Source: Eledone cirrhosa (Eukaryota). From it: a DNA stretch of 64,000 nt. The notes under the pieces were generated by a model, which did no database searches, was not told the origin of the DNA, and saw only the letters and a program-made list of their open reading frames with translations. Made by a program: the position numbers and the translations under genes. Shown piece by piece: positions 10,341-16,878 of the stretch (positions are counted from its first letter, which is position 1; each line of letters starts with the position of its first letter). Location: positions 105,028,001 through 105,092,000 of the forward strand of contig OZ024743.1 in NCBI GenBank assembly GCA_964016885.1, in the 5' to 3' direction.

Positions 10341-12120
10341 GGTGGTGTAGTATATTGTAGAGATGTGGTGTTGTTTATTGTAGTGATGTGGTGTTGTTTA
10401 TTGTAGAGGTGGTGTAGTATATTGTAGAGATGTGGTGTTGTTTATTGTAGAGCTGGTGTAGTATATTATAGAGATATGGTGTTGTTTATTGTAGCGGTAA
10501 TATAGTATATTGTAGAGGTAGTGTAGTATACTGTAGAAGCGGTGTAGTATATTGTAGAGGTAGTGTAGTATATTGTAGAGGTAGTGTAGTATATTGTAGA
10601 GGTGGTGTAGTATATTTTAGAGGTATATTGTTGAGGTAGTGTAGTATATACACTACAATATACTACACTACTTCTACAATATACTACACCACCTCTACAA
10701 TATACTACACTACTTCTACAATATACTACACTACCTCTACAATATACTACACTACCTCTACAATATACTACACCGCTTCTACAGTATACTACACTACCTC
10801 TACAATATACTATATTACCGCTACAATAAACAACACCACAGCTCTGCAATATACTACACCAGCTCTACAATAAACAACACCACATCTCTACAATATACTC
10901 CACCACCTCTACAATAAACACACCACATCTCTACAATATGCTACACCACCTACACCTCTAATATCAACACCACTAACATCAATACCACTAACACCAACAC
11001 CACAACCACTAACACCAATACCACAACCACTAGTGTAGTATATTGTAGAGGTGGTGTAGTACATTGTAGAGGTATATTGTAGAGGTAGTTTAGTACATTG
11101 TAGAGGTAGTGTAGTATATTGTAGAGGTGGTGTAGTATATTGTAGAGGCGGTGTAGTATATTGTAGAGGTGGTGTAGTATATTGTAGAGGTGCTGTAGTA
11201 TATTGTAGAGGTATATTATAGAGGTAGTGTAGTATATTGTAGAGGTAGTGTAGTATATTGTAGAGGTAGTGTAGTATATTGTAGAGGTAGTGTAGTATAT
11301 TGTAGAGGTGGTGTAGTATATTGTAGAGGTGGTGTAGTATATTGTAGAAGTGCTGTAGTATATTGTAGTAGTATATTGTAGAGGTGGTGTAGTATATTGT
11401 AGAGGTATATTGTAGAGGTAGTATAGTATATTGTAGAGGTGGTGTAGTATATTGTAGAGGTGGTGTAGTATATTGTAGAGGTATATTGTAGAGGTAGTAT
11501 AGTATATTGTAGAGGTGGTGTAGTATATTGTAGAGGTGGTGTAGTATATTGTAGAGGTATATTGTAGAGGTAGTATAGTATATTGTAGAGGTGGTGTAGT
11601 ATATTGTAGAGGTAGTGTAGTATATTGTAGAGGTGGTGTAGTATATTGTAGAGGTGGTGTAGTATATTGTAGAAGTGCTGTAGTATATTGTAGTAGTATA
11701 TTGTAGAGGTGGTGTAGTATATTGTAGAGGTATATTGTAGAGGTAGTATAGTATATTGTAGAGGTGGTGTAGTATATTGTAGAGGTGGTGTAGTATATTG
11801 TAGAGGTGGTGTAGTATATTGTAGAGGTGGTGTAGTATATTGTAGAGGTAGTGTAGTATATTGTAGAGGTGATGTAGTATATTGTAGAGGTGGTGTAGTA
11901 TATTGTAGAGGTGGTGTAGTATATTGTAGAGGTGGTGTAGTATACTGTAGAGGTGGTGTAGTATATTGTAGAAGTGGTGTAGTATATTGTAGAGGTGGTG
12001 TAGTATATTGTAGAGGTGGTGTAGTATATTGTAGAGGTGGTGTAGTATATTGTAGAGGTGGTGTAGTATACTGTAGAGGTGGTGTAGTATATTGTAGAGG
12101 TGGTGTAGTATATTGTAGAA
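10340..12120. repeat. 21-bp minisatellite (GTAGTATATTGTAGAGGTGGT)n with an internal inverted segment
   Basis: 21-nt period; 10651-11032 is on the opposite strand. Confidence 0.95.
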
Positions 12121-13882: not shown

Positions 13883-14451
13883 GTTCATATGTATTACATA
13901 ATATAATTATTAATATGTCCGTAATATTATCGATAAGTATGCTCTGGAATTATGCTCTGGAATACGAAATTTTCGCAACTAATTTCCATTGAGCTTTTAT
14001 GGGATTTGCTTATGGCTATTTTATGTACTGACCCCTTAAATGGTTGAGCTGCTTCATTGAAAGAATTGGTGCGCTATTTCTAGCTCCCCTATCAAACTCT
14101 TTGTTGTCCAATTGATGCAAAAAGCACACGGTGTCTCGTTTATTTCAGCATGGCGTTACCTGCTTAACTTAACAACACAAATGAATCAGTTTTCAACTGA
14201 TCTCAATGGATAGCCTTTATTTTGTAGCACTAAAAAGACATACCTACTGATGAAAACCAAGTCTTTTATTTAATTAATTATCTTATTTATTTTAACTATG
14301 GTAAGTAATAACTTTATGCCTGATTATTTTCTGTTTTGTCATATGTACTACAAGGCATTCGGGGTGGCCTTCTCACAATACAACAGATTTTACAGGCAGT
14401 CTCTGGATTGAATTTTCATTTTTCAATTACCTTGTATCTGTCCCCTATCTT

Positions 14452-14500
<49 letters not shown>

Positions 14501-14505
<5 letters not shown>

Positions 14506-14971
14506 GATAACAAGTTATCGTTATAGGTAATCCAGTTAGAGGTTGTGAGTACTTTGCGCCGTGGATAGTTTTAACGTACGGCTTTGTTTGACTCAACAAG
14601 GTGCTTCCATAGTTATGCAGCGAGTTCGCGGTAATTTCTATGCAAATTATACTTGGAGTAATAATAGTGAAATGATGGAGAGTAACATGGTTGGCTGTAC
14701 AATAAGGGGCTTTATTTAAAGTACTGACAATCGTTTCGTTGATCAGATGAGTCCAGAGTTCGCTAATCGCTTGAAGTTTCGTCACTCGATCTCCAATACA
14801 TTATATCTACGTACTCTGATGCGTTGACCAGAGGTAAATAATGAATTGGAGATCGAGTGACGCAACTTCAAGCAATTAGCGAACTCTAGACTCACCTGAT
14901 CAACGAAACGATTGTCAGTACTTTAAATAAAGCCCCTTATTGTACAGCCAACCATGTTACTCTTCATTCTT

Positions 14972-14978
<7 letters not shown>
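14501..14978. mobile_element. Non-coding hammerhead-bearing element family 1 (Penelope-like/retrozyme type) with ~140-bp inverted arms
   Basis: 14664-14804 is the reverse complement of 14838-14978 with a few mismatches; flanked by (TA)n at 14454-14503 and 14976-15017; contains a hammerhead fold at 14811-14921. Confidence 0.7.
14811..14921 (+). ncRNA. Type I hammerhead ribozyme motif (A9C core variant, palindromic minimal stem III)
   Basis: Stem I GTACT(14811-15)/AGTAC(14917-21); core CTGATGC; stem II GTTGAcCAG/CTGaTCAAC; GAAA 14905-08; stem III ACGATTGT; GUC cleavage triplet ending at 14916. Confidence 0.72.
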
Positions 14979-15019
<41 letters not shown>

Positions 15020-15086
15020 CAGGTTTAGCAAATAATGAAAAAGTTTCAAAATAAATTTTAAAAAATTGACTTTACTTACTATAGTT

Positions 15087-15170
15087 ACCTTTACCGAATC
15101 GGTTTCGAATCTCAAAAATAAACGGAGACCATACAGCCTTCGTTGCAAAGAAAGATTCTCGTCAGAAGGT
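15087..15170 (-). ncRNA. Type I hammerhead ribozyme (inverted copy)
   Basis: Reverse complement of 15734-15817 with core and all three stems intact. Confidence 0.85.
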
Positions 15171-15733
15171 TCTTTTCATTCGAAGAATATAAAATTCATG
15201 AATTTAAATTACGAACTAGCGCTATCCAAAACTGTTCCCGAGATGAGAGTAAATGAAGTGGAATCAATTTTTTCAAGGGCCGAAGTAAAGATAGAGGCAG
15301 AGGGAGGTAGGTCAAACGGCCACCACTATCACTAGCAGCAGTCGGGACGACCAAATTTTTTTCTCAACATAGAGGAGAATAGTAATAATAGGATATGTGT
15401 TCCTACACGCACAAAGCGCTAAGGGACACATGTATTGTCCAACCATATGCCAATTTGGTTCAATGGCAGGTTAATAAATTAACGAGCCACAACATATATA
15501 ATCAGGTTTAGCAAATAATGATAAAGTTTCAAAATAAATTTTAAAAAATTTGGTCGTTCCGACTGCTGCTAGTGATAGTGGTAGCCGTTTGACCTACCTC
15601 CCTCTGCCTCTATCTTTACTTCGGCCCTTGTAAAAATTGATTCCACTTCATTTACTCTCATCTCGGGAACAGTTTTGGATAGCGCTAGTTCGTAATTTAA
15701 ATTCATGAATTTTATATTCTTCGAATGAAAAGA

Positions 15734-15817
15734 ACCTTCTGACGAGAATCTTTCTTTGCAACGAAGGCCGTATGGTCTCCGTTTATTTTTGAGATTCGAA
15801 ACCGATTCGGTAAAGGT
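15734..15817 (+). ncRNA. Type I hammerhead ribozyme
   Basis: Stem I ACCTT(15734-38)/AAGGT(15813-17); core CTGACGA(15739-45); stem II GAATCT(15746-51)/AGATTC(15792-97) closing a 40-nt loop; GAAA(15798-801); stem III ACCG-ATT-CGGT; GUA triplet with predicted cleavage after 15812. All conserved core positions match the consensus. Confidence 0.88.
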
Positions 15818-15996
15818 AACTATAGTAAGTAAAGTCAATTTTTTAAAATTTATTTTGAAACTTTTTCATTATTTGCTAAACCTGATTATATATGTTCTGG
15901 CTCGTTAATTTATTAACCTGCCATTGAACCACATTGGCATATGGTTGGACAATACATGTGTCCCTTAGCGCTTTGTGCGTGTAGGAACACATATCC

Positions 15997-16042
<46 letters not shown>

Positions 16043-16096
16043 AAGTTAAATAAAAGTCAAATGATTAAAATTTAGCTTCGTTTATTACTGCGTTTA

Positions 16097-16097
<1 letters not shown>

Positions 16098-16127
<30 letters not shown>

Positions 16128-16190
16128 CATACATACATACATACATACATACATACATACATACATACATACATGTATATAAATATATAC

Positions 16191-16231
<41 letters not shown>

Positions 16232-16262
16232 CGTGTTTGTGTGTATGTATGTATACATATAT
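16098..16262. repeat. (CATA)n and (TA)n microsatellites
   Basis: Direct reading. Confidence 0.95.
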
Positions 16263-16269
16263 ATTTATG

Positions 16270-16878
16270 TCAGGACACCAGTTGGTGCTACTGGTAACAT
16301 GTATCCCGGTACAACTCGTCTCATGGTCGGGTCGTTGGCGACTAAACTGGCAACCCCACCAAGGTTTCTTGGTGAGGAGAGTGACTTTGGACATCCTGCA
16401 GAACTAAAAACAAAACATGTCAAAGGGCAAGGGAGCTCTTAAGAGTCAATGGCCATCCAAAATCACCGGGAGAGATGACCCCTTAGCCTTTGTCAAGGCA
16501 GAATTCTAGGAGAAGGAAAACTCTGATATAACACCTGCAACCCTGATGGTATCCAATGATGTTGACTTGTTCTTCTTTTTGGTAAATATCATCTTGGTTA
16601 AGAGAGTGGGACTGGTTTTGTGCAGTGCCTTTGCTCACTATAAACGCTTCACGGCACAGGCATTGCTTTATATCTGGAGATCTCTCTGCACTTGTCGTCA
16701 CATGGTACCATGGGCCCAGCACTATGTGTCAATAATTGTCACAAGTGTAGTGTTTGTACCATAGTTTTCAAGTCGCTGGCTGGACTAAAAAGTCACACTC
16801 GTTCAGCGCATCGGTAGGGGTTCTCCTACATGGATATAAAGTAGTGGCCGTACTCGAAAACGAGTTTGCAGCCACCAT
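16270..16878 (+). mobile_element. Non-autonomous RTE-derived element (5' UTR joined to the 3' end)
   Basis: Shares its 5' block (GCTACTGGTAACATG..CAACC..GGACATCCTGCAG..AAAGGGC..GAGTCAA) with copies at 35770 and 37685. The 3' part encodes CSVCTIVFKSLAGLKSHTRSAH (RTE-like C-terminal zinc finger) and ends GTGGCCGTACTCGAAAACGAG..GCAGCCACCAT. Confidence 0.7.

Follow-up and report, generated by a model that had tools for sequence, protein, structure and literature searches.

Opposite-strand hammerhead motifs in Eledone cirrhosa lie in one inverted insertion of a dispersed, non-coding and probably retrozyme-type repeat family

Two intact type I hammerhead motifs lie on opposite strands of a 64,000-nt stretch of Eledone cirrhosa DNA (contig OZ024743.1 of assembly GCA_964016885.1, positions 105,028,001 to 105,092,000; hereafter the window), and both belong to a single element, 15011-16002, inserted in inverted form in a (TA)n run. 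We consider it probable that this element is a member of a non-coding retrozyme family, likely of the non-LTR kind, whose copying is predicted to depend on a Penelope-like element (PLE), through its endonuclease and reverse transcriptase. The hammerhead at 15734-15817 travels with a mobile repeat as a commonplace passenger, in a genome rich in hammerheads. Since each orientation is one arm of the same inverted insertion, which is of PLE type, no special function is required to explain them. The window consists largely of simple repeats and retroelement remains, and the assembly spans 3.0 Gb.

Sequence inspection and folding located one motif on each strand (Table 1). The core elements CUGANGA, GAAA and UH are present in that order, and in the minimum-energy fold of the 84-mer there are three stems, of which stem I contains the two ends of the RNA. 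On the plus strand the 10.1-11.1 pair is G15746-C15797, the cleavage triplet is GUA, cleavage is predicted after A15812, and stem II continues beyond its base-paired part into an internal loop and a distal hairpin. The minus-strand motif differs by one base, a C to U change in the distal stem II hairpin that retains a U-G pair. For the isolated 84-nt RNAs of the two copies the hammerhead was the minimum-energy structure (-22.1 and -19.7 kcal/mol). A descriptor demanding at least 5, 6 and 4 bp in stems I, II and III, run on both strands, found two hammerheads in the window and none in 100 block-shuffled windows. The preliminary description of an intact consensus type I hammerhead, with its G10.1-C11.1 pair, GUA triplet and palindromic stem III, and of a second intact copy on the minus strand was borne out by these results. 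The covariance-model search that it had proposed as a check gave a different outcome: Rfam returned 0 matches for the whole window at the gathering score, and none of the 54 matches in 14400-16400 at E<=10 was a hammerhead. The 40-nt insert in stem II is a likely reason for this miss.

Table 1. Features of the inverted insertion and of its two hammerhead motifs (positions within the window)
Feature	Position	Strand	Remarks
Left (TA)n run	14976-15017	.	insertion target; overlaps the ATATAT end of the arm
Left arm, 540 nt	15011-15550	-	unit 296-483 then 1-352; 3' end at site A joins (TA)n
Whole minus hammerhead	15087-15170	-	predicted cleavage after 15092
Arm junction	15543-15550	.	8-nt overlap common to both 5'-truncated arms
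Right arm, 460 nt	15543-16002	+	unit ~1-461; 3' end at site B joins (TA)n
Candidate pseudoknot strand, purine-rich, flanking stem I on its 5' side	15727-15733	+	inferred from covariation
Whole plus hammerhead	15734-15817	+	5, 7 and 4 bp in stems I, II and III
Stem I strands	15734-15738 ACCTT with 15813-15817 AAGGT	+	5 bp
Core CTGACGA	15739-15745	+	
Stem II 5' strand GAATCT	15746-15751	+	then 40 nt
Stem II internal loop 5' strand, candidate partner	15753-15759	+	
Stem II 3' strand AGATTC	15792-15797	+	
GAAA core	15798-15801	+	then CCG-ATT-CGG
Palindromic stem III	15801-15811	+	able to form an intermolecular duplex
T15811 A15812	15811-15812	+	before AAGGT 15813-15817
Internal site A copy, short TA run	15884-15893	+	read through in right arm
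109-nt tail between sites A and B	15894-16002	+	on one arm end only
Right (TA)n run	16000-16037	.	

Both motifs are inside a 351-nt inverted repeat of 98.9% identity, formed by 15011-15361 with 15543-15893. The arms diverge from the 8-nt overlap and each has a (TA)n run at its outer end; the motifs are 564 bp apart, with one sense ribozyme per strand and no two motifs on the same strand. We rejected an assembly fold-back artefact because the arms differ at 4/351 and 3/166 positions and have different ends. This copy is 99% identical to other loci and is a young member of a dispersed family.

Several other repeats were seen in the window. At 14661-14982 there is a further inverted PLE-like fragment, an 89% palindrome with relatives at loci L130, L039 and L035, which ends at the same left (TA)n run. 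On the minus strand, 16038-16091 is a 3' fragment from a different hammerhead family, one also seen at L004. The 5' end of this fragment, which follows a 9-nt duplication, coincides with the cleavage site predicted for that family; judged from sequence, this end is possibly a trace of in vivo cleavage. A 230-nt, 97% inverted repeat lies within a 21-bp minisatellite (10395-10920), and 40528-62490 is a ~22 kb CAA/CAG/TAA-type repeat with a strong strand skew.

This locus is one of a whole family. A 24-mer from the 3' half of the ribozyme had 260 exact matches in the genome against 0 for the control, and the best copies among the matches listed were 96-99% identical over 458 nt. Tandem units at L037 place successive cleavage sites exactly 483 nt apart, which defines the unit; its GC content is 36%. 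Arrays reach ~3.5 units, and tandem units each carrying a type I hammerhead were found at L037, L034, L107, L108 and L038. The locus belongs to subfamily I; subfamily II has a 486-bp unit, is 84% identical to subfamily I and gave 649 motif matches, while subfamily III is 72-76% identical and gave 175. Divergence within a subfamily is 2-10%, and the period of 483-487 bp was kept through the three successive subfamilies. The predicted fold of the circular monomer has an energy of -114.8 kcal/mol, compared with -92.6 +/- 4.6 in 25 shuffles. Runs X4 (88 million letters of contigs) and X1 both cover the whole unit and also the unit-to-unit joint; A>G plus T>C changes account for 19/33 in X4 and 15/31 in X1, the spectra are alike, and the molecule type of X4 is not on record. 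A subfamily II copy is located 14 kb upstream of the window (G000:C4:105013775-105014216, L128), and G000:C3:88918583-88937300 holds nine copies of one insertion carried within a larger tandem expansion. The 483-bp family appears to be undescribed: a literature search on hammerheads with Penelope in octopus or cephalopods and on Penelope twin priming, its scope excluding supplements and subscription journals, returned no such family, and the words hammerhead, ribozyme and retrozyme are absent from the accessible text of a 2026 octopus repeat annotation (PMC13282606).

Hammerheads of other families are numerous in this genome. Two such families gave 6,856 and 15,648 exact motif matches (controls 0), together >22,000. 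In the flanks of loci L001-L108 the descriptor returned 46 rows at ~41 distinct places, representing type I hammerheads of at least 10 other families; L004, L041, L056, L072, L088 and L093 contain opposite-strand pairs of other families. Other retrozyme-like tandems were observed at L095:3371-4807, L053:650-1184 and L099:247-742, the periods being 457 bp (in four units with an 8-bp stem III) and 465 bp.

To describe how the family inserts we mapped 101 clusters from 108 fetched loci and dropped nine, tandem or segmental duplicates of two insertions, which left 92 insertions in a non-random sample (30 loci were those with the best full-length matches, and most of the rest came from the first 100 of the 260 pattern places). 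Their 3' ends fall at two fixed positions 109 nt apart, unit 352 (site A, the commonest 3' end across the family) and unit 461 (site B). The 53 single-arm insertions end at A in 42 cases, at B in 8 and at other positions in 3. The remaining 39 insertions are inverted, all with the divergent polarity seen at 15011-16002, and comprise 29 AB, 2 AA, no BB and 8 with one end elsewhere. When both ends lie at the sites, AB makes up 29/31 against an expected 50% (p 2e-7), and the pattern-picked loci alone gave 17/18 (p 7e-5). This count shows cleanly that the ends are coupled when a PLE-type insertion is inverted. In subfamily II the 12 inverted loci, picked with a near full-length query that favours site B, comprised 9 AB, no AA or BB and 3 with one end elsewhere. 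A TA-rich 12-mer adjoins 111/120 ends; where the flanks are (TA)n, target-site duplications are unreadable. None of the 5' arm ends falls exactly at the cleavage site (unit 272), and the nine arms with starts at 275-282 make up an excess that is weak and post hoc. A pile-up of ends at unit 1 proved to be an artefact of the position at which the query unit had been cut. One exception to the insertion rule was seen at L037:4249-5695, where the array comes very close to three full units (unit 254 to 251) and lacks both the usual ends and TA flanks. Distances within an insertion were below the between-insertion median in 47/55 tandem and 41/54 inverted comparisons, which are not independent. Near-identical units occur in some arrays only, and many units are as different from their neighbours in an array as from units elsewhere, which does not speak for rolling on a single circle.

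The asymmetry of the ends admits a second account, bearing solely on the nicking and extension step of the model proposed below, in which there are no two priming sites and the DNA intermediate, folded back on itself, is cut by an endonuclease within the element, at the TA-like site A. Both sites do resemble the target, A being a short TA run and B an ATT repeat, and the tail has been ascribed to endonuclease resolution (PMC8557442). The inner ends of paired arms, however, are unrelated and joined by short overlaps, and in vitro the tail maps to two RT start sites (PMC11167929), so we regard a fold-back cut as rather unlikely and prefer two priming sites. A stem closing sites A and B, present in one fold with flanking TA, was absent in 4 natural internal copies and was rejected.

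The insertion traits are all PLE traits: PLEs leave inverted 5'-truncated copies, often with a tail at one end only, and show a (TA)n bias (PMC8557442); the tail runs from one RT start site to the other, and cutting and extension affect both strands (PMC11167929). For truncated PLE ends, pairs of hammerheads on opposite strands, 100-700 bp from each other, were described in 2014 (PMC4209133). The unit could on this evidence be the pseudo-LTR of an autonomous PLE with a rare or lost body, its copies representing 5'-truncated insertions and short pLTR multimers that involve no circular RNA. We found no homologous autonomous parent in three DNA searches, in each of which 40 candidates of 1,905-2,784 were scored, so that a rare one could be missed, or at four Neptune-type loci; a non-exhaustive search for an RT plus GIY-YIG frame between pLTRs likewise found none at the loci examined. 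What tells against a pseudo-LTR is that arms longer than one unit run into another unit and never into a shared body (92 insertions, and 20 + 20 loci of subfamilies II and III), that the period is constant in all three subfamilies, and that Pfam gave no match for the longest frames over the ribozyme, which have 98 aa (antisense) and 59 aa. We consider this explanation improbable and retain the retrozyme reading.

The best candidate for a helper, as judged from sequence, is a Neptune-type PLE. Locus L145:2877-6953 (-) contains a full-length PLE with a 1,240-aa open frame between two repeats, each with a minimal hammerhead. The frame has the RT motif YVDD, a CX4CX2C linker and, at its C terminus, a GIY-YIG-like domain, and gave no match to Pfam or to the sequences of solved structures; its putative assignment as Neptune-type follows from these motifs and from the description in PMC8557442, in which Nematis has the CX4CX2C linker too. 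This PLE family gave 15,648 exact motif matches (control 0), and several more copies of Neptune-type PLE have frames >1,000 aa. It has no sequence in common with our unit at the nucleotide level, which counts against the retrozyme model; a 9-mer common to both near their ends was within chance by a rough estimate. At L096/L129 (L129 being G000:C3:21125.5-21128.0 kb) and at L038:3235-4580 a piece of the Neptune-type PLE is joined 5' to 5' with the unit, with no TA between the arms and each arm terminating at one of the usual ends; at L074 the unit is joined head to tail with a relative. In the two chimeric inverted insertions A goes with A and B with B, which departs from the AB rule and counts against the retrozyme model. 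Nested independent insertions could explain the chimeras, and other direct joints involve unrelated repeats; we treat the joints as a lead only towards the helper.

We then asked how well the ribozyme has been kept. The core is intact in 106/112 distinct copies of subfamily I, 33/39 of II and 19/22 of III, the copies having been found with a fuzzy core pattern that favours intact ones. Across subfamilies the outer stem I pair changes from A-U to G-C and pair 3 of stem II from A-U to G-U to G-C. In subfamily III the sequence of stem II is wholly different yet paired, with an internal A-U/U-A swap, and its first pair is U-U in 22/22 copies. A distal C-G pair is U-A in 8/21 rows. Over 21 distinct rows 93.5% of the cells pair and 13 two-sided changes were counted; two of five covariation measures were not above shuffles, and related rows inflate the others. 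In single natural copies the stem I, core and stem III positions were kept at 27/28 where the 5' region is 80% identical and at 25/28 where it is 72%. It could be argued that the ribozyme is a passive hitch-hiker, intact because the copies are young and without a role in spread, as the low divergence within subfamilies would allow. PLE hammerhead mutants do insert in vitro (PMC11167929), and, taken whole, the ribozyme region does not exceed the 3' region in conservation (0.87 vs 0.89-0.91 to subfamily II, 0.70 vs 0.81-0.82 to III). Because the core and stem positions were kept and the stem changes are compensatory, sequence comparison nevertheless shows selection on the hammerhead fold during the history of the lineage, and we give the hitch-hiker explanation a slightly lower standing still than the pseudo-LTR. 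The preliminary description had suggested probable catalytic competence, and the same pattern of kept or compensated core and stems across three subfamilies 72-84% alike argues for it; we think it somewhat likelier than otherwise that the ribozyme is cleavage-competent within its source RNA.

It had also been proposed that the ribozyme might work better as a dimer. Stem III is palindromic in all three subfamilies, being a loopless 8-nt palindrome in III, and its predicted duplex energies of -14.3, -16.6 and -14.1 kcal/mol compare with -2.0, -0.9 and 0 for the hairpins. These calculated energies support the dimer idea for tandem transcripts. In subfamily I, to which the present copy belongs, stem III is thus dimer-prone as suggested, while a cis-dimer does not arise here, given the single sense ribozyme on each strand. 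The purine-rich 5' flank of stem I may moreover form a pseudoknot with the stem II internal loop: it can make 6/7 pairs in subfamily I, 7-8 in two others and 6 in subfamily III, where the register moves by one base and an A-U pair becomes G-C. Hammerheads commonly have pseudoknots of this kind (PMC3088659). The interaction is supported by two covarying positions, which lie in sequence of low complexity, and other pairing registers score nearly equal in this A/U-rich stretch; we put its chances at about even.

The fate of RNA reading through the locus was predicted by folding, with a program that models neither pseudoknots nor dimers. In such RNA the antisense arm precedes the ribozyme, and the pairing probability of all three stems was 0.00 on both strands, with the same result for RNA ending directly behind the motif. 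Removing the antisense arm did not rescue the monomer fold in long contexts (stem I probability 0.00-0.06 for 250-800 nt), and only short contexts favoured it. A transcript of 15700-15822, started inside the right arm near the motif, can fold it, with a stem I probability of 0.56-0.76. The read-through transcript is predicted not to be cut but to form a duplex of ~350 bp in which both ribozymes are buried. No host exon was recognised in the window, 20 kb upstream or 10 kb downstream, a weak test in a large-intron genome. The preliminary description had reasoned that transcription in either direction would include a ribozyme and that a host pre-mRNA could be cut if the locus is intronic. The two orientations are instead the arms of one PLE-type insertion, one of the 39 inverted among 92. 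With stems at 0.00, long contexts disfavouring the monomer, one sense motif per strand and no exon recognised, cutting of host RNA appears unlikely. A bidirectional self-cleaving device acting on host pre-mRNA or other read-through RNA would have two intact ribozymes at its disposal, and a start close to the motif would let one fold; set against the buried stems of full read-through RNA and the place of this locus as a young member of a dispersed family, we judge such a device very improbable. The copy at 15011-16002 is, on these predictions, most likely a dead end.

How the family relates to known systems can be stated in some detail. In L1 twin priming, two target 3' ends prime cDNA and an inverted 5' part is joined by microhomology; here, by difference, both priming sites are fixed 109 nt apart and the arms run far past the other site. 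As in non-LTR retrozymes, the units are tandem, non-coding and low in GC with one type I hammerhead each (PMC7229834; 10.64898/2026.07.22.740005), occur as dispersed monomers to short multimers, have a highly self-paired predicted circle and share the genome with PLEs; animal retrozymes have been proposed to be PLE derivatives (10.64898/2026.07.22.740005). The unit of 483-487 bp is longer than the 170-400 nt RNAs and 150-450 bp units described (PMC7229834), a point against the retrozyme model, but 483 nt is within the 51-972 bp range of the preprint (10.64898/2026.07.22.740005). Further differences are the frequent two-end inverted insertions, the strict (TA)n target and the failure of our searches to find a homologous PLE. 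With PLE pseudo-LTR hammerheads (PMC4209133) the motif has in common a 7-bp stem II, a 5-bp stem I, a palindromic stem III and opposite-strand pairs 100-700 bp apart; it differs in its 4-bp looped stem III, which makes a monomer fold possible, in the long internal loop and distal hairpin of stem II, in the candidate pseudoknot and in having no coding body. The EN+ PLEs (Neptune, Naiad, Poseidon) likewise show partial tandems, an inverted 5'-truncated copy, a one-sided tail, (TA)n targets and two fixed 3' ends, but our unit has no RT or GIY-YIG frame and its tail is 109 nt compared with 30-40 nt (PMC8557442, PMC11167929). The counts that place our insertions beside them are 39/92 inverted truncated copies, a one-sided tail in 29/31 and a microsatellite at 111/120 ends. 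In pseudoknotted hammerheads the partner differs from our candidate, an internal loop 7 bp up stem II (PMC3088659).

Taken with the observed unit, copies, tandem arrays, fixed ends, TA targets and conserved fold, we propose the following course of events. A tandem source copy would be transcribed and its hammerheads would cut the RNA into 483-nt monomers, probably aided by stem III dimerisation and the candidate 5'-flank pseudoknot; the monomers may be circularised. A PLE protein would bind the RNA near the conserved 3' region and nick a (TA)n run on each of its strands. The resulting two 3' ends would then be extended, one from site A and the other from site B. Joining of the two 5'-truncated cDNAs by microhomology would produce divergent arms, one with the 109-nt tail. 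Several observations already given sit uneasily with this model, namely the missing 5' end at unit 272, the disfavoured monomer fold in a unit-length context and the difference between units of one array. In addition, of nine predicted frog retrozyme dimers assayed in vitro only one cleaved (10.64898/2026.07.22.740005), and PLEs inserted in vitro without needing hammerhead cleavage (PMC11167929).

That hammerheads occur in retrozymes and at PLE ends is already known and widespread. The 483-bp family offers a short template and a candidate helper for testing PLE integration, and inverted copies like 15011-16002 are potential sources of long double-stranded RNA, not of cleavage. As a more speculative proposal, which we hold only tentatively, the family may be a long-lived retrozyme that uses the protein of a non-homologous Neptune-type PLE, with coupled A/B priming, 109 nt apart, on the two nicked strands of a single (TA)n target and a pseudoknot-stabilised, dimer-prone hammerhead. 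If so, the 483-nt RNA and the 1,240-aa helper would constitute a ready in vitro system for PLE inversions and tails.
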